Shown in pieces: positions 1 through 5,787 of a stretch of DNA of 5,787 nt. Within the stretch, counting starts at the first letter, position 1. Each line of letters begins with the position of its first letter. The notes beneath the pieces are model-generated. The model was not told the origin of the DNA, did no database searches, and worked only from the letters and a program-made list of their open reading frames with translations. Origin of the DNA: a virus (lineage: Duplodnaviria > Heunggongvirae > Uroviricota > Caudoviricetes); the IMG/VR virus record IMGVR_UViG_2690316210_000008; one strand, written 5' to 3'. The translations under genes were made by a program, and so were the position numbers.

Positions 1-109
1 GGCATCCGCATAGTGCGCTGGGTTATCGCTCGCCACGGGAATATCTGTGGCAGCGGGCTTGTAATGGGTTAAGTGATAACAGATGTCTGGAAATATAGGG
101 GCAAATCCA
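1..109 (+). mobile_element. Right terminus (last ~109 bp, including the terminal inverted repeat) of an IS2 insertion sequence (IS3 family); the element body lies upstream of the window
   Basis: Seen: bases 68-109 read GTTAAGTGATAACAGATGTCTGGAAATATAGGGGCAAATCCA, which matches my recollection of the IS2 right inverted repeat ending ...GGGGCAAATCCA. Frame 3 of bases 3-98 encodes ...[25 protein letters not shown], the typical C-terminal tail of the IS2 OrfB transposase. Established: IS2 termini are 5'-TA...CA-3'. No database search was possible, so identity rests on recalled sequence. Confidence 0.8.
3..98 (+). CDS. insD: IS2 transposase OrfB (InsD), extreme C-terminal end; 5' part outside the window
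   Basis: Seen: frame 3 is open from the window edge to TAG at 96-98 and encodes [31 protein letters not shown]. Established: the ...HSALGY.SP.EY... tail is characteristic of IS3-family (rve/DDE) transposases. Only 32 codons are visible. Confidence 0.7.
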
Positions 110-1401
110 CTAATGCCGATGCTAAAATTGATGCAATGCACAAGCAAATCACTACCGAAACAGGTAAAACCGTTCAAGCCTCAGCCGATACTCTCAAGAG
201 TCTGATTGCTACCAGTGAGCAAGCTAGCTCAACTAAGATTGATCAGGTTAAAGCTGAACTGAAAGGCGATATCACCAAAGAAGTTAGCGCCTCCGCTACT
301 ACCCTGAAACAAGCAATTGCTACCAGTGAGGCAGCAAGCGCAAGCAAGATTGATCAAGTTCGGGTAGAAATGGATGGCAAGATTGCTGGTGTGAATCAGG
401 AAGCAGATGTAAAAATCGATGCTTTGAAGGGAACCATTAACAGCAAATATAATCTGGCAGTTAATGCAGATGGTCGCGTGGCTGGTATTCACATGAGCGC
501 AACCAACGATCCGGCGCAACCGACGAGAATCATCTTTAATGCTGATAAAATCGCGGTAGCTCCACAGAACGGGTCGGGGGTATGTCCGTTTGGTATCGAA
601 GGTAACAAGGTTTATCTCGATAATGCCATGATTCGTAATGCTGCAATTGGTACAGCCCAGATTAATGATGCGGCGATTACCACGGCTAAAATCGGCAATG
701 CTGCAATTAACAGCGCGAAGATTCAGGACGGGGCAATCACTAATGCCAAGATCGTAAACGGTGCAATTGATAACGCTAAAATCGGTAACTATATCCAGTC
801 TTCCAACTGGAATGGATCTACCGGATGGCATATCAACAAGAATGGCTCTGCTACGTTCATGAACGCAACCGTTAAAGGTAATATCACGGCTGATTCTGGT
901 ACTCTGAACAACGTCACGATTAACTCTAGCTGTGTTATTAAGGGTATGCTTGAAGCTACTCAGGTTAAGGGTGATTTCGTTAAGGTGATTGGTCGTAAGT
1001 TCCCGCACCGTGATGTTAACGTTGATAATGGTTATGCTGGCTATCCACAAGGTACAGTGACCGTTCGCGTTGAAGATGATCACAAGTTCGATCGTCAAAT
1101 CGTTATTCCGGCAATTAGTTTTGGTGGATTGCGAGCGCGTGAAGGGTCGAACGGTAATACGTTTTACGACACCTGTCGCCTTATTGTTCGTAAGAATGGG
1201 TCAGAGTTGTATAATAGGGCTTATGGCGGCAATACTGGTCTTTACTCTGGTGTTATTGATATGCCAGCGGGTAAGGGTGCTGTAACTCTAACGTTTGAAG
1301 TACACTCAAGCGCAATCAACAACTGGACGCCTAGCACATGGATCAGTGATTTAACTGTAATGGTAACTAAAAAAGCCACTACGGGTATTACTGTTTCTTA
1401 A
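73..1401 (+). CDS. Phage tail fibre / host-specificity (receptor-binding) protein, C-terminal portion; the listed GTG start at 73 lies inside the IS2 terminus, so the native gene is probably 5'-interrupted and native sequence begins about base 110
   Basis: Seen: 442-codon ORF ending TAA 1399-1401. It has two full 37-aa tandem repeats built around a KIDQV motif, five consecutive 10-aa repeats of form I-x-[ND]-[AG]-A-I-x-x-A-K (residues 187-236), and an N/G/T/S-rich C-terminal domain. Inference: this composition and repeat architecture is typical of phage tail fibres. Codons 1-12 are encoded by IS2-derived sequence and there is no Shine-Dalgarno before 73 or before the first in-frame ATG at 136. 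Confidence 0.7.
175..396 (+). repeat. Two tandem ~111-nt (37-codon) imperfect direct repeats inside the tail-fibre gene, with partial units flanking (about 124-420)
   Basis: Seen: AAGATTGAT (K-I-D) recurs at 235-243 and 346-354, exactly 111 nt apart, within aligned units ...[20 protein letters not shown]... and ...[20 protein letters not shown]...; further KID motifs at codons 18 and 114. Confidence 0.8.
631..789 (+). repeat. Five tandem 30-nt (10-codon) repeats encoding I-x-[ND]-[AG]-A-I-x-x-A-K inside the tail-fibre gene
   Basis: Seen in translation: [10 protein letters not shown] / [10 protein letters not shown] / [10 protein letters not shown] / [10 protein letters not shown] / [10 protein letters not shown], then IGN. 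Confidence 0.8.
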
Positions 1402-1420
1402 AAATTTAATTTTAATAATT

Positions 1421-1460
1421 AATCCCGCTTAATTCTTTAGAGTTAGGCGGGATTATTTTT
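1421..1460 (+). terminator. Putative rho-independent terminator after the tail-fibre gene
   Basis: Seen: AATCCCGC (1421-1428) pairs with GCGGGATT (1447-1454) around an 18-nt loop, followed by ATTTTTAT (1455-1462). The long loop lowers confidence. Confidence 0.45.
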
Positions 1461-1507
1461 ATCTAAATAATTTTGCCATTAAACTATATAAAAATATCGG
1501 GGGCGTA

Positions 1508-1786
1508 ATGACTGAAATTATATATGGCGGTATCGGTGTTATCGCCTTAATTTGTGGTGGATTATGGAGACTTCACCGAAATCAATTAGCCACAGAAAAT
1601 AGATTGTCGAAATTAGAATCCAATGATGCATTGTTTAATCAGAAGTTTGAAACAATGCAGAATAACCACGATCAGATATCCGAGAGAGTTTATCGCATGG
1701 AACAAACCCTTCACGGTATAGAAAAGAAAGTGGTTGCGATGGACGCTAAATTTGACCAAGTTATCGATTTACTCAGACAAAAATAA
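1508..1786 (+). CDS. Small membrane protein with one N-terminal transmembrane helix and a coiled-coil domain (92 aa); possibly a spanin-like or holin-accessory lysis protein
   Basis: Seen: ATG 1508 preceded by GGGGG (1499-1503). Hydrophobic stretch IIYGGIGVIALICGGLW, then a charged heptad-like segment (LSKLESNDALFNQKFETMQNNHDQISERVYRMEQTLHGIEKKVVAMDAKFDQVIDLL). Inference: this topology resembles i-spanins or antiholins; no sequence-level match was recognised. Confidence 0.6.
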   Translation: MTEIIYGGIGVIALICGGLWRLHRNQLATENRLSKLESNDALFNQKFETMQNNHDQISERVYRMEQTLHGIEKKVVAMDAKFDQVIDLLRQK

Positions 1787-1805
1787 TAATAAAAGGGGTG
1801 AATAT

Positions 1806-1976
1806 ATGAAGAATAAACTTAAGAAATATTTTGGTTATCTCTTGATTGTCGCCCTCACTTATAACGTAGCAATCAGACCTCTGCTTACGTCCTTTGGGCT
1901 TAATCTTCCGGCAATGTCCGTTGATGATGAATTGCTCAGGATGATAGCGGGGGTCTTTTCGTTATTAGGGGGATAA
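1806..1976 (+). CDS. Small hydrophobic membrane protein (56 aa); holin candidate
   Basis: Seen: ATG 1806 with Shine-Dalgarno AGGGGTG (1792-1798); the longer track ORF from 1734 would need a TTG start inside the previous gene. Hydrophobic segments YFGYLLIVALTYNVAI and LLRMIAGVFSLLGG. Stop TAA 1974-1976 sits 1 nt before the next ATG. Confidence 0.55.
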   Translation: MKNKLKKYFGYLLIVALTYNVAIRPLLTSFGLNLPAMSVDDELLRMIAGVFSLLGG

Positions 1977-1977
1977 C

Positions 1978-2661
1978 ATGGCAATCAGTACCAATAAACG
2001 AAACGCTCTAAGGACTAAGAAAGCGTTACGGCAATGGACTGATAAGGCAACCGATACATTCGAAAAGGCGATAGGGGAAGGGGCGATCTTTGCTGCTCGC
2101 GCACTCCAGAAGAAGATTAACAAGAATGTTGATAGACCTACTCGCTGGACTCAGCAAGCTGTAGGTAATACCAACTACAAGAACCGGTCAGGGACCAGAC
2201 ACCAAATCTTCATCAAGGGCGCAAGGGATAAGGACAAGAAGATCGGGAGTCAGGATGACTATCTGAAACACTATTTCGATGGTGGCAAAATCAATAAGCT
2301 AGTGCCAATCGCTAACGGCAAGGTCTTAGACTCCCACGGGAACATTAAGGCCATCAAAGGCGGTAAGATGATGCGTAACATCGAAAACGGCAACTTCATC
2401 AAGATAGAGAACAAGGAAGGGACTTTTATCATGAAGAAGTATAAGCCTAAGAAATCCCGAACCAAACGCGCTAGGAATGGATCGGCGGTGGCAAAACGTC
2501 GCTTAGAGAAACGCACACAGAAACAGAGTAAGCGAATTGTTGCCGTTAAGTCGGATAAAATTTCTACTCGTTATTCGACGCTAGGATCGTGGGAAAGCAA
2601 CGAAGTAATGATGCTTAAGAATATCAATAAGCACATTAAATCACGCATGAAATACGTTTAA
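1978..2661 (+). CDS. Highly basic Lys/Arg/Asn-rich hypothetical protein (227 aa), with an especially basic stretch near the C-terminus (KKYKPKKSRTKRARNGSAVAKRRLEKRTQKQSKR); possible nucleic-acid-binding or virion-internal protein
   Basis: Seen: ATG 1978 preceded by GGGGG (1967-1971); stop TAA 2659-2661; no cysteine; no hydrophobic segment. The function is inferred from composition only. Confidence 0.6.
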   Translation: MAISTNKRNALRTKKALRQWTDKATDTFEKAIGEGAIFAARALQKKINKNVDRPTRWTQQAVGNTNYKNRSGTRHQIFIKGARDKDKKIGSQDDYLKHYFDGGKINKLVPIANGKVLDSHGNIKAIKGGKMMRNIENGNFIKIENKEGTFIMKKYKPKKSRTKRARNGSAVAKRRLEKRTQKQSKRIVAVKSDKISTRYSTLGSWESNEVMMLKNINKHIKSRMKYV

Positions 2662-2671
2662 TCCATAAATA

Positions 2672-2696
2672 CCCTCATAAGAATCTTATGGGGGGG
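2672..2696 (+). promoter_or_regulatory. Stem-loop overlapping the Shine-Dalgarno of the following gene (possible translational control or RNA processing site)
   Basis: Seen: CCCTCATAAG (2672-2681) pairs with CTTATGGGGG (2685-2694), a 10-bp stem with one G-U pair and a 3-nt loop. The stem includes G2691-2694 of the GGGGGG Shine-Dalgarno (2691-2696) for ATG 2703. No T-run follows, so it is not a terminator. Confidence 0.35.
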
Positions 2697-2702
2697 TATA
2701 AC

Positions 2703-3050
2703 ATGGCTAAAAATATTTTCACTGAATTTCCTACTTATCCGGTCGATCAGCTTTCCGGTATTTTTATTAATGGCATTAGCCCTGAATCAATGACCTATGA
2801 TTTTGAGGCGAAGAGAGTCCAACATAAACAATTCAAGCAGATGATCCGCGATGATGGTAATGGGCTAGTGTTTTGTGTTGCGACACTCGCTAAACGTCCT
2901 AAGTATCGCTTTCGTGTAGGGCAGGAGATTGATGTAGTTAATCCTTACAACTTCAATTGTATTGGCGATGCACGAGCGGTATGTGTAGGCACAACTAACT
3001 ACTATATCAAGGGACTCCGCTTTACCGGGTATCTCTTCCAGTACCTTTAA
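2703..3050 (+). CDS. Hypothetical protein (115 aa), no recognisable domain
   Basis: Seen: ATG 2703 with GGGGGG 6 nt upstream is preferred over the track start at ATG 2688, which has no Shine-Dalgarno. Stop TAA 3048-3050. Protein MAKNIFTEFPTYPVDQLSGIF... has no motif I recognise. Confidence 0.55.
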   Translation: MAKNIFTEFPTYPVDQLSGIFINGISPESMTYDFEAKRVQHKQFKQMIRDDGNGLVFCVATLAKRPKYRFRVGQEIDVVNPYNFNCIGDARAVCVGTTNYYIKGLRFTGYLFQYL

Positions 3051-3059
3051 GGGGGTAAT

Positions 3060-3413
3060 ATGATCTCTCGTTACTTTCGACGTAAAGAATTTGAATGCAA
3101 ATGTGGGAAGTGCGGACAGGATACCGTAGACGCTGAATTACTGGCAATTCTTGAGGATGTACGCGAATACTTCGGGAAACCAGTAGTTATTAACAGTGCT
3201 AACCGTTGTCCGGCACACAATAAGAAAGTTGGTGGCGCTTCTCGTTCGATTCATATCACGGGCAAGGTCGCAGATATTGTAGTGAAAGGTGTCTCTCCTG
3301 ATATCGTTCACTCTTATCTTGATAGCAAATATCCCGATCAGTATGGTTTAGGCAAATACAAAACCTTTACGCATATCGATTCTAGAGGATATAAGGCTAG
3401 ATGGAATGGATAA
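3060..3413 (+). CDS. Zinc metallopeptidase of the peptidase M15 (M15A/DUF882-like) family; probable phage endolysin (peptidoglycan peptidase)
   Basis: Seen: ATG 3060 preceded by GGGGG (3051-3055). Motifs RRKEFECKCGKCG near the N-terminus, SIHITGKVAD (His-x6-Asp) and THID. Established: H-x6-D plus a downstream H-x-D/H is the zinc-binding signature of M15 peptidases, a family that includes phage endolysins. No signal peptide is evident, so export would need a holin. Confidence 0.8.
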   Translation: MISRYFRRKEFECKCGKCGQDTVDAELLAILEDVREYFGKPVVINSANRCPAHNKKVGGASRSIHITGKVADIVVKGVSPDIVHSYLDSKYPDQYGLGKYKTFTHIDSRGYKARWNG

Positions 3414-4106
3414 AATTAAAGCGCCTCTAGTGGGCGCTTTTTTGTTTTTTTCACGAGGCTGTTTACACGCAGATTGCCATGTACTTACAACAATCAGGCG
3501 ATCGCCTACATGCTTACTAGTACCACTCATGATAGTATGAATTGCCTCATAAGGAAACTGGCGATAATCAACAAAATCATCACGCATTTGCAGCACTAGC
3601 GACGTGGTAGGAACGATGATCAGCACTTTCCCTTCATAGTTCTCTAAGTACCAGCGAGACAACATACAAGCAATCGCAGATTTACCAGCGGACGTAGGCA
3701 AAACTAACATTCCACGTTTATGATGAATACCTTCAAAGACAGCCTTTGATTGATACCAATGCGGGGTGATCCTGTTAGCACCGGAATATAATTCCAGATC
3801 ATTACACCATTTTGTAATTTCTTCTTCTGTAACTTGTTCTTTTTCGAATAAGCGAGGGTCTACCCATACGCTATATCCCATATTTTTAGCGAAGATTCCC
3901 ACGGTTTTAGTTAGGCCGATTGGTAGTCTATTTTCATAGGTAAAAAGTCTTATGCGACCATCCCAATTGGAATACTTAAATTTTTTGCTAAATCTAGCTC
4001 CCTCAACTTCAAAGGAAAAGTAATCCCTTAGTTCCATCGCTATAGAATCAGAGCAATCAATTTTAACGAAACTATAGTCTTGAAAATGAATTTTAATATC
4101 TGGCAT
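3348..4106 (-). pseudogene. uvsW: N-terminal ~220 codons of a T4 UvsW-type SF2 DNA helicase, truncated after motifs I and Ia; the final ~33 codons are unrelated read-through into the antisense of the terminator and endolysin 3' end
   Basis: Seen: P-loop motif LPTSAGKS and motif Ia VLIIVPTTSL are present, but no DExH box or later motifs; the ORF ends ...STWQSACKQPRE then KNKKAPTRGALILSIPSSLISSRIDMRKGFVFA*. Recalled: the N-terminus (MPDIKIHFQDYSFVKIDC...WDGRIRL...PHWYQ..AVFEG) closely parallels T4 UvsW as I remember it, where DECH follows roughly 10 residues after KQPKEW. The likely start is ATG 4104-4106 (Shine-Dalgarno GGAG 8 nt upstream, overlapping the upstream stop as TAATG), not the track's GTG at 4115. 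Confidence 0.7.
3418..3450 (+). terminator. Strong rho-independent terminator after the peptidase gene, likely bidirectional
   Basis: Seen: AAAGCGCC (3418-3425), 7-nt loop TCTAGTG, GGCGCTTT (3433-3440), then TTTTTTGTTTTTTT to 3450. On the minus strand the same hairpin is followed by TTTAATTTTAT. Confidence 0.8.
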
Positions 4107-4675
4107 TAGTTCCACTCCACACTTGCAATATTCTTGATGTTATTCACTTCCTTCTCATTGAAAACGAATGTCTCTGTTTTGCCGTATTCAATCCCGCCTA
4201 TACCTACATCCAGTAATCTCTTGATTGCTCTTTCAGTGGCTAGTGCATGTTTCATTGATGGCATTTCACCAGCGTAGACAATATCAAAGTTATGACCGGG
4301 ATTGCGTACACCCAGATTAATGCGTCGCTTGATGATTGACTTTGTTACACCAAATTTACCAATATCCCCTGATTTCATTACATAGAGATAAGGCACACCC
4401 GCTTTATATTGAAAGTAATCACTTTTGAGACAAGCACAGCGTTTACCTTCATTAAGCAGGTTAGTAGCTGATTTGTCGGCTCTATTACCACATCGGGTAC
4501 ATGTAAGAGCAATTCTTGAATGAAGCCCTTTAAACTCACCCAGAAAGCCATGAAAGACTAACGGTAAGTCATTATCTTTGATGTGAGTCAGAATGCGTTG
4601 TTCTAATGCCGATGGAGTTACAGCACGGGAGGATTTAGGAGTAAAAACAATATCTTTAGCCATTACTGGAATCAT
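4106..4675 (-). CDS. Protein with a Cys-rich zinc-ribbon-like segment and a C-terminal T5orf172/GIY-YIG-superfamily-like domain (189 aa); homing-endonuclease-like selfish gene candidate
   Basis: Seen: ATG 4673-4675 with GAGGT 4 nt upstream; stop TAA 4106-4108. Motifs C-x2-C-x16-C-x-C (CTRCGN...KRCAC) and YLYVMKSGDIGKFGVT...RR. Inference: the Y-hydrophobic ... K-F/I-G-V-T ... R pattern resembles the T5orf172 (GIY-YIG clan) domain. The N-terminus (AKDI.F ... GFLGEFKG) is paralogous to the gene at 4831. Confidence 0.65.
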   Translation of the reverse strand: MIPVMAKDIVFTPKSSRAVTPSALEQRILTHIKDNDLPLVFHGFLGEFKGLHSRIALTCTRCGNRADKSATNLLNEGKRCACLKSDYFQYKAGVPYLYVMKSGDIGKFGVTKSIIKRRINLGVRNPGHNFDIVYAGEMPSMKHALATERAIKRLLDVGIGGIEYGKTETFVFNEKEVNNIKNIASVEWN

Positions 4676-4830
4676 ATAGACCTCACTTTTTTAACTTATA
4701 GGCATAACCTCAATATGGTTGGTTTGTAACATTAGGGTCGCATATTATACACATCCAGATAGAGAATGCAATAGCAAGACAATTTTCTCTAATAAATAGT
4801 AGTGAGCTTATTATTTTAGAGGAAACTACT
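4676..4830. promoter_or_regulatory. 155-bp AT-rich divergent intergenic region, presumed to hold promoters for both flanking genes
   Basis: Seen: no ORF; the flanking genes diverge. Candidate -10-like hexamers are present (TATTAT 4743-4748, ATAAAT 4792-4797) but I could not pair them convincingly with -35 elements. Shine-Dalgarno AGAGGA (4818-4823) precedes ATG 4831. Confidence 0.3.
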
Positions 4831-5787
4831 ATGAAACTAGCATTTGCCAAAGATATTGATTTTGTTAAAAGAACGAATGGAAAATCACCTTTAGAGATAG
4901 AACAAGAGATAATCGATAAGGTGTCGCCAACCGGATTAATCTATTCAGGATTAATTCTTCCCTTCAAAGGTAGTATGGGTAAGTATCGCGTAACTCACCC
5001 AGACACAGGGGAGTTTAAGGATTATGCAATTAAGCATTTCAATAACTTCACCGGAACAGAATTGTTTTCTACCGAAAAGGCCGCATTAGTCTCGATTAAA
5101 AGGAAGTGCGAGAAATTAGGGAAAGAATTTATAGAATGGGATGGAGGCTGGAAAGGATTTGCAAAAACCAAAGCCGTGATTATGTGCAAAGAGCATGACA
5201 GAACATTAAACCCAAAACTGGTTTATGCACTAAAAGATGATGTTCCTTTGGCGTGTTCCGGTTGTCGCGGCGATACTGTGCACAAGAAATCTAATGGCGG
5301 TAAGACTAGACATGAAGTAAGACAGGAAAAACAAGCAATCATCGAATCCCGTTGCGAAAAGATGAATTACACTTTCAAGGGATTCTCCGGTGATTTACGG
5401 TACTCATATGCAACAAAATTCGTTATTCACTGCAACAAGCATAATGTTACATGGGAATCAACGAAATGCACTATCCATAAGTTTACTTGCCCCGAATGCA
5501 GAAAAGAACAGTTGATTCAGCTTTCCAACCGTACATACACTGATAAGGCTAATTTCTATATTCAATTATTAGATGACAAATTTATTAAATTTGGTGTTAC
5601 CACACGAGATATTAAAATCAGGATGTATGAGCAAACCAGAAAGAGCAATTTTAACCATAAATTAATCTTCCTTCATGAGTTCGCGGAAGGATGGAAAGCA
5701 TTAGACCTAGAGCATGAAGTAAAACAACGCTTTATGAAGTGGTCAACAAAAACTGGCCACCGAGTTAGAGTTTTTCCAGTATCGATT
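4831..5787 (+). CDS. Protein with two Cys/His zinc-ribbon repeats and a T5orf172/GIY-YIG-like domain, paralogous to the minus-strand gene at 4106-4675; 3' end beyond the window
   Basis: Seen: I translated ATG 4831 through base 5787, 319 sense codons with no stop. The supplied ORF track omits it because the ORF runs off the window. Shine-Dalgarno AGAGGA 7 nt upstream. Two repeats ([KR]CEK..., C-x2-H-x15-20-C-x2-C): CKEHDRTLNPKLVYALKDDVPLACSGC and CNKHNVTWESTKCTIHKFTCPEC. Then FYIQLLDDKFIKFGVTTRDIKIR..., which is T5orf172-like. The N-terminus (AKDIDF ... GLILPFKG) aligns with the minus-strand paralogue. Confidence 0.75.
   Translation, partial: MKLAFAKDIDFVKRTNGKSPLEIEQEIIDKVSPTGLIYSGLILPFKGSMGKYRVTHPDTGEFKDYAIKHFNNFTGTELFSTEKAALVSIKRKCEKLGKEFIEWDGGWKGFAKTKAVIMCKEHDRTLNPKLVYALKDDVPLACSGCRGDTVHKKSNGGKTRHEVRQEKQAIIESRCEKMNYTFKGFSGDLRYSYATKFVIHCNKHNVTWESTKCTIHKFTCPECRKEQLIQLSNRTYTDKANFYIQLLDDKFIKFGVTTRDIKIRMYEQTRKSNFNHKLIFLHEFAEGWKALDLEHEVKQRFMKWSTKTGHRVRVFPVSI

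Follow-up and report, generated by a model that had tools for sequence, protein, structure and literature searches.

How did a UvsW-type helicase gene come to end abruptly against the lysis genes of a temperate prophage, and is its remaining front half still a functional protein? These questions are raised by a minus-strand open reading frame (ORF) in the window analysed here, a stretch of 5,787 nucleotides that is a whole Shigella sonnei contig. Its ends are IS2 and IS911, and its content is the remnant of a siphovirus prophage that integrates at ycdX. The ORF is most probably an inactive UvsW helicase remnant, which arose from a deletion of about 832 bp and has been kept intact mainly by recombination with Krischvirus. 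Taken alone, the truncated gene is a case of ordinary prophage decay; what has a modest interest for the study of phage evolution is its context. The helicase of this prophage family, whose members occur in E. coli, Shigella and Salmonella, was captured from T4-like phages; nucleases of the CapR/T5orf172 family are encoded beside uvsW in both prophage and T4-like phage genomes; and truncations that arose independently lie close together, beside the point at which an intein splits the uvsW gene of some phages.

The window and its truncated helicase ORF

The IS2 end (positions 1-109; IS2 copies in several phage records match it at 98-99% identity) forms one contig border and cuts a tail-tip/central-fibre (lambda J-like) gene, whose remaining 3' part of about 430 codons (110-1401, plus strand) matches Pfam Phage_Tail_Tip and Ig_GpJ_C. 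Homology to the relative L001 begins at position 110, and the tail-tip product has 1226-1259 amino acids (aa) in relatives, with full-length genes in L001, L014 and L019. Four small plus-strand ORFs encoding 92, 56, 227 and 115 aa (1508-3050) lie between this gene and the endolysin gene, as in all relatives, and have no significant Pfam or PADLOC match; the 92-aa product gives weak PHROG matches, to families of unknown function, and the other three give none. The endolysin gene (3060-3413, plus strand; stop codon at 3411-3413) encodes a peptidase M15 of 117 aa (Pfam Peptidase_M15_3, E = 9e-28; PHROG endolysin, E = 5e-41). On the other side of the helicase ORF lies ORF189 (4106-4675, minus strand), which encodes a putative homing-type endonuclease with CapR and T5orf172 (GIY-YIG-like) domains and whose stop codon overlaps the helicase start (TAATG). 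Its Pfam match to CapR is just above the cut-off (E = 3e-5) and that to T5orf172 is below it (E = 0.005); it also matches the PHROG_681 endonuclease family (E = 2e-18), and its homologues in T5-like phages and RB16 are named 'endonuclease'. ORF189 is optional among relatives, being present in L001 and L011 and absent from L010. Beyond it, positions 4831-5734 (plus strand) hold the 5' part, about 300 codons, of a CapR/T5orf172-family nuclease gene (tblastn; PHROG_681, E = 8e-33), which encodes 392 aa in L014 and is homologous to ORF361 of JK32, a neighbour of uvsW. This gene is cut by the IS911 end (5735-5787; 100% identity to IS911 in the Sf6 and SfII records), the other contig border. A plasmid origin of the window was rejected, as plasmid matches are confined to the IS ends. 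In PADLOC-DB, ORF189 and the 4831-5734 nuclease give no match and the helicase fragment gives partial, generic helicase-core matches only (PbeA, HamB and a type IV REase); membership of a known anti-phage defence system was rejected, there being no significant full-length system-specific match.

The helicase ORF occupies positions 3348-4106 of the minus strand and encodes 252 aa from an ATG start; an alternative GTG start (3348-4115) gives 255 aa. The initial annotation had recognised a UvsW-type helicase with motifs I and Ia and a retained N-terminal domain, and Pfam and alignments bear this out for codons 1-219 (3450-4106), which end with CKQPRE. Pfam UvsW_N (PF21241) matches residues 6-86 (about 3858-4100, minus strand) with E = 1.2e-38 and the profile fully covered. 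Motif I, the Walker A sequence LPTSAGKS (3678-3701, minus strand), and motif Ia (IIVPTTSLV) are conserved in the alignments. Residues 3-219 align with residues 2-221 of T4 UvsW (PDB codes: 1RIF, 2OCA; E of about 1e-79), and the alignment ends there. DNA homology to prophage and Krischvirus uvsW stops at position 3450, inside the interval 3440-3455 to which the end of similarity had been assigned. In full-length relatives the DExH box (IVDESH or IVDECH) lies 10 codons past the last homologous residue of the window ORF, the distance at which it had been estimated to be missing.

Beyond this point the window shows no trace of the remaining helicase motifs. The Pfam ResIII match covers only about the first 125 of 164 profile positions, motif II (DExH, Walker B) has no trace in the window in alignments or tblastn, and Pfam finds no Helicase_C match in the product that would represent the second RecA-like domain. 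No hidden frameshift accounts for the loss of motifs II-VI, because tblastn of the C-terminal 275 residues of two full-length homologues (L001 and RB49) against the window gives no match. A product without motifs II and III, and without any of the second RecA domain, cannot be a helicase, and ATP-dependent branch migration or unwinding would not be expected of a protein with this domain content. AlphaFold2 gives pLDDT values below 50 at residues 215-252 and around the strand preceding Walker A. Databases currently label the truncated gene as an intact 'DEAD/DEAH box helicase family protein'.

The window ORF shares UvsW_N, Walker A and motif Ia with T4 UvsW and its orthologues in the Krischvirus phages RB49 and JK32 but differs from them in its length (252 aa versus about 500 aa), in its unrelated 33-residue tail and in having neither DExH box nor motif III nor second RecA domain. 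Unlike those genes, it resides in a temperate siphovirus-type prophage, not in a virulent myovirus, and the partner gene UvsW.1 is absent.

The deletion and the native order of the modules

The end of homology had been read as a breakpoint at which illegitimate recombination fused a replication-module helicase gene to an unrelated tail-fibre and lysis module, with positions 1-3450 replacing the original sequence. Intact relatives do not bear out this reading. The prophage family is of siphovirus type, integrates at ycdX beside the curli genes and uses a large serine recombinase for this; in its intact members, the helicase gene is part of a variable region that has the lysis genes on one side and the recombinase gene on the other. 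Intact E. coli relatives have a full helicase of 496-497 aa at the same position, convergent with the endolysin gene, with its stop codon abutting the same terminator. The helicase is full length in L001 and has 496 and 497 aa in L010 and L011, respectively; nine further E. coli genomes have the same extra sequence of about 820 bp and an annotated DEAD/DEAH helicase next to the endolysin gene, the E. coli genomes with a full-length helicase in this place being put at about 9-13. The helicase of an intact ycdX prophage of E. coli, WP_338384105.1 (NZ_AP027850), shares with the window its locus, orientation, upstream ORF, nuclease genes, endolysin and terminator; unlike genes of this type, the window allele lacks the last 277 codons and has a Krischvirus-like middle. 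Since intact relatives carry the full helicase at the same site, the helicase and lysis modules were already neighbours, and since the full-length gene is natively convergent to the same endolysin and terminator, the event is a deletion within the helicase gene, which lost its 3'-terminal 832 bp as far as its own stop codon. No publication on UvsW fragments in prophages or on ycdX prophages turned up in literature searches.

The intact syntenic relatives thus largely refute a fusion of unrelated modules, which is very improbable. The terminator does act as a general module boundary, in that L009 and about 13 other relatives without a helicase have 110-3446 in common with the window and diverge right after ...GCGCTTTTTTGTT, and the Krischvirus-like helicase segment has a history differing from that of the lysis segment. 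However, L001, L010 and at least nine genomes have a full-length helicase adjoining this endolysin and terminator, the right flank with ORF189 and the nuclease gene is syntenic with prophages carrying the full helicase, and the junction still holds the final bases of the helicase gene's stop codon and 3' UTR.

The comparison with L001 defines the deletion. Window positions 110-3446 match L001 12001-15332 (91.5%) and positions 3450-4874 match L001 16165-17589 (83%), and the missing sequence of about 832 bp, which lies in L001 where the window has its junction, corresponds to the 3' 277 codons of the helicase gene up to its own stop codon. Codon 219 (GAA) is joined to this stop codon, and the junction reads GAA|(TA)ACAAAAAAGCG, with an AA microhomology. 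Three extra A on the coding strand (3447-3449, minus strand), which are unaligned in blastn, are most likely a homopolymer expansion. The allele P0032 has one Lys codon fewer at the junction, giving a clean GAA|AACAAAAAAGCG, and the alleles P0027 and P0031 have other A-run lengths, as judged from their protein sequences.

The non-homologous tail of 33 codons and its stop codon (3348-3449, minus strand) follow the junction. As originally described, codons 220-252 read the terminator and the 3' end of the endolysin gene in antisense. The frame of the tail shifts with the length of the A-run, so that members of the cluster have 252, 251, 229 or 228 aa, the junctions of the three shorter forms being deduced from proteins. 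The terminator (3418-3440) is a predicted bidirectional intrinsic hairpin with a GC-rich stem followed by a T-run, found by a terminator scan on both the plus and minus strands; its minus-strand RNA has a folding energy of -12.3 kcal/mol (z = -2.4), and it is conserved in L001, L009, L010 and L014. In relatives it is common to the endolysin and the convergent helicase; in the window it falls inside the tail of the truncated ORF, and the stop codon lies past it. Because the frame runs through the terminator, most transcripts would be expected to end before the stop codon and to yield a non-stop message.

The identical 252-aa product and junction occur in six contigs of S. sonnei type, of which one is from an NCBI assembly and the others are from five sequencing runs, each assembled on its own, and a near-identical allele is found on 13 further contigs of up to 202 kb. 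The same junction is present in L014-L018, which represent an E. coli prophage that is intact in other respects: its tail-tip protein has 1226 aa, its recombinase 559 aa and its nuclease 392 aa. Among GTDB representatives the exact junction pattern gave no match; the assignment of the host to S. sonnei comes from cluster names. An assembly chimera was thus ruled out, because the same junction and product recur on independent contigs. The window is a short contig bounded by IS elements and its junction lies within homopolymer runs, as might be found if a chimeric contig or a frameshift had produced the truncation; with the junction recurring in all these assemblies and the downstream helicase sequence present in no frame, the chance of a sequencing or assembly artefact is negligible. 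The deletion predates the IS decay, since it is common to otherwise intact E. coli prophages. The window resembles other pseudogenised Shigella prophages in that IS2 and IS911 cut the tail-tip and nuclease genes and the helicase has an internal deletion, but differs in that this deletion came before the IS decay.

Exchange with Krischvirus uvsW and the case for selection

The first 60 codons of the window helicase are of the prophage type, and the middle part is Krischvirus-like (95% identity, versus 70% to intact prophage alleles). Codons 61-219 (3451-3926) have 95-97% DNA identity to Krischvirus uvsW, and the protein is identical but for one residue. Between the window and L014, this segment differs by 31 synonymous and 3 nonsynonymous changes; codons 1-60, which are too diverged from Krischvirus to recombine, differ by 0 synonymous and 2 nonsynonymous changes, and the tail does not differ at all. 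The overall pN/pS is 0.04, in a small sample. Haplotype blocks come from different phage alleles: at coding positions 309-312 the window matches JK32, and at 510-531 L014 matches L026v. The apparent purifying selection, which at first seemed to favour selection on the fragment, is restricted to the phage-exchangeable segment, where both the partitioning and the haplotype table place the signal. Blocks common to different circulating Krischvirus uvsW alleles are evidence of DNA exchange between virulent phages and resident prophages. In the 72 nt next to the junction there are seven third-position differences, of which the closest two are 9 and 18 nt away from it; these are not easily explained by an ordinary double-crossover conversion from a full-length donor.

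These observations lead to a probable sequence of events for an inactive remnant. An intact UvsW-family (SF2) helicase gene, convergent with an M15 endolysin gene in a ycdX prophage and served by one bidirectional terminator for both, lost about 832 bp, from the codon after Glu219 to its own stop codon. The A-run at the junction most likely grew later by three A in the window allele. The reading frame now continues through the terminator hairpin into endolysin antisense, and most transcripts would end before the stop codon. Codons 61-219 have probably been overwritten again and again as the uvsW genes of Krischvirus (RB49-like T4-type) phages that infected the host recombined homologously with them, and the remnant would remain open and conserved in protein sequence mainly because of this overwriting. 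Its conservation can be explained without selection on the fragment. In Shigella-type prophage decay, the remnant would subsequently have been bracketed by the IS2 and IS911 insertions.

It is improbable, though less so than a fusion of modules, that the fragment is a functional small protein maintained by selection, such as a decoy or dominant-negative version of Krischvirus UvsW. Its N-terminal DNA-binding domain and Walker A half-domain would then hinder the recombination-dependent replication of superinfecting T4-like phages; if true, such prophage-encoded exclusion would represent a new type of exclusion factor. Consistent with a function, every truncated allele seen is open through codon 219, the near-identity of codons 61-219 to Krischvirus UvsW protein and the pN/pS of 0.04 could reflect selection, and the fragment occurs in otherwise intact prophages, in an accessory region and translationally coupled to the upstream ORF. 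A second lineage (L019) has its helicase cut 4 codons later, 13 nt from the first junction, with a proper stop codon ahead of the terminator and a product of 223 aa. However, the synonymous excess is found only in the segment able to recombine with phage uvsW, where the phage haplotype blocks are. The earlier suggestion that a truncated DNA-binding protein could still be produced from the remnant is possible but lacks support, in view of a tail of variable frame and length, a window allele whose stop codon lies past the terminator, the loss of the core motif II strand and with it half of the RecA fold, and differences outside the exchangeable segment that are exclusively nonsynonymous. The PADLOC similarity is that of helicases in general, and that all fragments found are N-terminal is an ascertainment effect of the N-terminal query.

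Losses elsewhere in the family also argue against a maintained function. Other helicase relatives are broken at the unrelated positions 143, 160 and 307, the last by an IS1 insertion at codon 307; the 3' part of the gene is replaced by a T5orf172 gene in Salmonella; and the helicase is wholly absent from L009. The helicase is thus frequently lost in the ycdX prophage family. Viral and metagenome scans for close relatives returned three loci each, all full-length phage uvsW, and an alignment-based GTDB scan returned distant matches only (at most 48% identity), nearly all on contigs of metagenome-assembled genomes (MAGs).

Split uvsW genes and the origin of the truncation

The two lineages cut only 13 nt apart suggest a non-random process, a point against the reading as a remnant of ordinary decay. 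About 25-39 nt downstream of their junctions is the DE|CH site, at which UvsW genes of Krischvirus-type and other T4-like phages carry a split intein and an intervening 306-aa ORF, the junction of the Krischvirus-type split allele being deduced from protein sequence. In such 'fractured' genes (cf. PHROG_16259), which consist of an N-half with N-intein, an intervening ORF and a C-intein with C-half, the N-terminal half of UvsW (1-231) is naturally a separate polypeptide. The window ORF resembles them in encoding a UvsW N-half that ends near the DExH box, 12 codons ahead of the DE|CH split site, and this natural N-half could also be taken in favour of a function for the fragment. Unlike a fractured uvsW such as that of L033, the window product has no Hint/intein match in Pfam and the window holds no C-half; moreover, with the motif II strand missing, nothing can be spliced back together. 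The 'uvsW_1/uvsW_2' pair of Whisky was rejected as a split gene, uvsW_1 being full length and uvsW_2 being UvsW.1.

A triggered origin of the truncation is compatible with an inactive remnant, as it concerns the origin only. An infecting T4-like phage may have brought in a homing endonuclease associated with uvsW, or a split-intein element, that made a double-strand break close to the DExH codons; alternatively, a broken Krischvirus uvsW fragment may have integrated by one-sided homologous plus illegitimate recombination. Either way, the other end would have been joined at the stop-codon A-run. In agreement with such a trigger, the two junctions lie close to the split site, Krischvirus-like sequence extends right to the junction, and CapR/T5orf172 nucleases flank uvsW both in the prophages and in the Krischvirus phages JK32 and Whisky. 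On the other hand, these nucleases have no known cleavage site, a nuclease domain is not recognisable in the middle ORF of the split gene, and a very asymmetric loss is needed, tens of nucleotides on one side versus about 800 on the other. A full-length Krischvirus-like parental allele for comparison was found in no prophage, and a simple AA-microhomology deletion in A/T-rich sequence suffices. A triggered origin is therefore rather unlikely, at perhaps one chance in a handful. More doubtful still is the combined idea that the 219-residue front half of UvsW is an interference protein or recombination 'bait' kept by prophages against Krischvirus-type T4-like phages, truncated at least twice next to the split-intein/homing site and matched to the phage UvsW by repeated gene conversion.

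Besides the helicase, one member of the prophage family keeps a UvsY fragment beside it.

Deletion of the helicase 3′ end

The minus-strand ORF at 3348–4106 encodes a truncated UvsW-family helicase of 252 aa (255 aa from an upstream GTG) and is a further example of something familiar, a gene remnant left by deletion in a prophage undergoing decay. The UvsW_N domain is complete (E = 1.2e-38); the ResIII domain stops after its first three quarters. Residues 3–219 align with residues 2–221 of T4 UvsW (PDB codes: 1RIF and 2OCA; E ~1e-79), and the alignment stops at residue 219. Walker A (LPTSAGKS) and motif Ia are both retained, the last homologous residues are CKQPRE, and the DExH box of relatives would start 10 codons later, in agreement with the initial annotation, which placed the end of the ORF about 10 codons before this box. 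The same annotation correctly derived the final 33 codons from the antisense of the terminator (3418–3440) and the endolysin 3′ end. With the last 275 residues of two full-length homologues as queries, tblastn gives no match in any frame of the window, arguing against a hidden frameshift, and the identical protein and junction recur in one NCBI assembly and in five read sets that were assembled separately. The truncation is real. The remnant is homologous to UvsW helicases but lacks motif II and domain 2, differs from a split-intein N-half in having neither intein nor C-half, and shows nothing more than generic helicase similarity to PADLOC systems.

The prophage of E. coli 2017.18.04CC (L001) carries a 496-aa helicase at exactly this site, convergent with the endolysin gene, with the two stop codons 31 nt apart. 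Blastn aligns window 110–3446 with L001 12001–15332 (91.5%) and window 3450–4874 with L001 16165–17589 (83%), and the 832 bp of L001 missing from the window are the last 277 helicase codons up to the stop codon of the gene. The extra ~820 bp seen in L001, together with an annotated DEAD/DEAH helicase, are also found in at least nine further complete E. coli genomes; the full-length protein is 496 aa in the related prophage L010 and 497 aa in L011. Since the intact helicase lies beside the endolysin in these relatives, the helicase and the lysis module were already neighbours. The breakpoint proposed initially exists, but the region at 1–3450 is not the unrelated tail-fibre and lysis module that had been envisaged, the endolysin being a native neighbour; the alignments indicate that the helicase gene lost its own 3′ end by deletion and that no unrelated modules were fused.

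The coding strand reads CGT GAA AAA AAC AAA AAA GCG CCC at the window junction and ATA TAA CAAAAAAGCGCCC at the end of the L001 helicase. A 251-aa cluster member (P0032) has one Lys codon fewer than the window, giving a simpler junction of GAA joined to AACAAAAAAGCG. Judging from the protein sequences, GAA (Glu219) would have been joined to the TAA stop codon through two bases of microhomology, and the three extra A of the window would be a homopolymer expansion.

Recurrent truncation beside the uvsW split site

The junction of the window also occurs in L014–L018, an otherwise intact E. coli prophage with a tail-tip protein of 1226 aa, a nuclease of 392 aa and a recombinase of 559 aa, 93.7% identical overall to the window. 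In E. coli and S. sonnei, members of the cluster are 252, 251, 229 or 228 aa long, and each length is accounted for by differing lengths of the two junction A-runs, so that the tail is not conserved, even in frame. A second, independent-looking truncation is seen in a related prophage that lies close to codA and lacZYA and has another serine recombinase (L019–L023). Its helicase (L019 10001–10672; 223 aa) ends in PREWFKQ, 13 nt further into the gene than in the window, and the terminator directly follows the stop codon. Other members have IS1 inserted at helicase codon 307, Salmonella prophages keep 143–164 N-terminal helicase codons followed by a T5orf172 gene, and the relative L009 has no helicase at all. 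These cases, together with the truncated ones, show the helicase to be an accessory gene often lost from this prophage family.

In a number of T4-like phages, among them Krischvirus-type members of the same 90% protein cluster, uvsW is split (L033 5001–8109; proteins P0033, P0035, P0038, P0008, P0010 and P0011). The N-half (1–231) and the N-intein fused to it, together ~330 aa, are followed by a 306-aa ORF without a Pfam match, the C-intein with the C-half (306 aa) and UvsW.1. PHROG_16259 (330 positions) appears to be the family of the split-uvsW N-half. The split site, between DE and CH, lies 12 codons past the breakpoint of the window, and this recurrence of truncation beside it is worth keeping.

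A CapR and T5orf172/MUG113 nuclease family, putatively of GIY-YIG-like homing endonucleases, flanks uvsW in the Krischvirus phages JK32 and Whisky as well as in the prophages. The prophage members are ORF189 upstream of the remnant, the 392-aa nuclease and Salmonella proteins of 197 and 396 aa (window 4106–4675, minus strand, and 4831–5734, plus strand; L001 17546–18721; Salmonella prophage L031 4674–5864 and 6561–7154). The JK32 and Whisky member (JK32 locus L013 520–1605) is a 361-aa ORF between uvsW and uvsW.1, 29–34% identical to the prophage proteins (E = 1e-43 to 1e-51). On this circumstantial evidence, a nuclease-induced break near the DExH codons could have given rise to the two junctions 13 nt apart. 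One nuclease of the family stands in place of the helicase 3′ part in Salmonella prophages.

Exchange with T4-like phages

Window 3451–3926 is 95–97% identical to uvsW of Krischvirus phages such as RB49, JK32 and ECD7 and only about 70% identical to intact prophage alleles, whereas the first ~75 nt of the remnant are of the prophage type (85% versus 66–67%). In its 3′ part, the L001 helicase is likewise close to RB49 (86% identity), and a 55-aa C-terminal fragment of UvsY lies convergent to the helicase in L011 (8376–8543), matching the gene order of RB49. The prophages therefore acquired their helicase region from T4-like phages, and further exchange has remodelled it. L001 also encodes a protein annotated as 'receptor recognizing protein Gp38' (4116–4622); with the UvsY fragment, this shows that several T-even-type genes have entered this siphovirus-type temperate family.

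Over the 219 homologous codons, the window and L014, which have the junction in common, differ at 31 synonymous and 5 nonsynonymous positions. The resulting pN/pS of 0.04, taken alone, suggests constraint. However, all 31 synonymous differences lie in codons 61–219; codons 1–60, which are too diverged from Krischvirus for recombination with its uvsW, have 0 synonymous and 2 nonsynonymous differences, and the 102-nt tail has none. Within codons 61–219, the window and L014 are each nearer to particular phage alleles than to each other, with multi-site haplotypes shared by the window, JK32 and the phage locus L025 (coding positions 309–312) and by L014 and the phage locus L026 (510–531). Since the synonymous excess is confined to this segment and follows phage haplotypes, it appears best explained by import from functional phage uvsW genes after truncation, and the shared blocks imply repeated homologous exchange of T4-like phages with prophage DNA. 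This evidence that virulent Krischvirus phages continue to exchange sequence with a resident fragment of prophage is worth keeping. Seven third-codon-position differences from L014 lie within 72 nt of the common junction (window 3450–3522), the nearest at 9 and 18 nt. Ordinary double-crossover conversion with a full-length donor accounts poorly for these, and conversion tracts reaching the edge of homology are required. Heteroduplex formation with trimming of the non-homologous tail might be one such route.

Prophage context and the truncated product

The window is one whole draft contig (CXAQ01000190.1 of GCA_001261215.1; 5787 bp), and its helicase product is the Shigella sonnei protein CSN79250.1/WP_216080576.1. 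The contig is so short because it is bounded by an IS2 end (1–109), which cuts the J-like tail-tip gene to its last ~430 codons, and an IS911 end (5735–5787), which interrupts the 392-codon CapR/T5orf172 nuclease gene near codon 300. Such borders are typical of IS-driven prophage decay in Shigella, and the intervening 5.6 kb shows synteny with a prophage family carried on E. coli chromosomes. E. coli members are integrated in ycdX beside the curli operon with a large serine recombinase adjoining, and Salmonella members have the same arrangement. In intact members, the tail genes, ending with the J-like tail-tip gene (1226–1259 aa), are followed by four small ORFs, an M15 endolysin, a variable region and the recombinase. 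The four ORFs (92, 56, 227 and 115 aa) are conserved at window 1508–3050 and have no match in Pfam or PADLOC searches; only ORF92 matches PHROG families, weakly, and these have no assigned function. Its membrane-spanning appearance makes the 56-aa ORF a candidate holin.

The helicase start overlaps the ORF189 stop (TAATG) with GGAG upstream, so translation is plausible. The ORF contains the bidirectional terminator hairpin (3418–3440; −12.3 kcal/mol for the minus-strand RNA) and reaches its stop codon (3348–3350) about 70 nt beyond it. Transcripts stopped at the terminator would carry no stop codon, and the products of such transcripts undergo tmRNA tagging and then degradation. Through the truncation, the first RecA domain loses its central motif II strand, and AlphaFold2 pLDDT is below 50 for residues 215–252 and 132–139. 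The fragment is thus unable to act as a helicase and most probably has no activity. Codon 132 (3711–3713), just before the Walker A strand, encodes Gly; the residue is Arg in 14 other close alleles and T4 UvsW, and Arg is also found in another S. sonnei allele (P0028). This position is variable among distant homologues.
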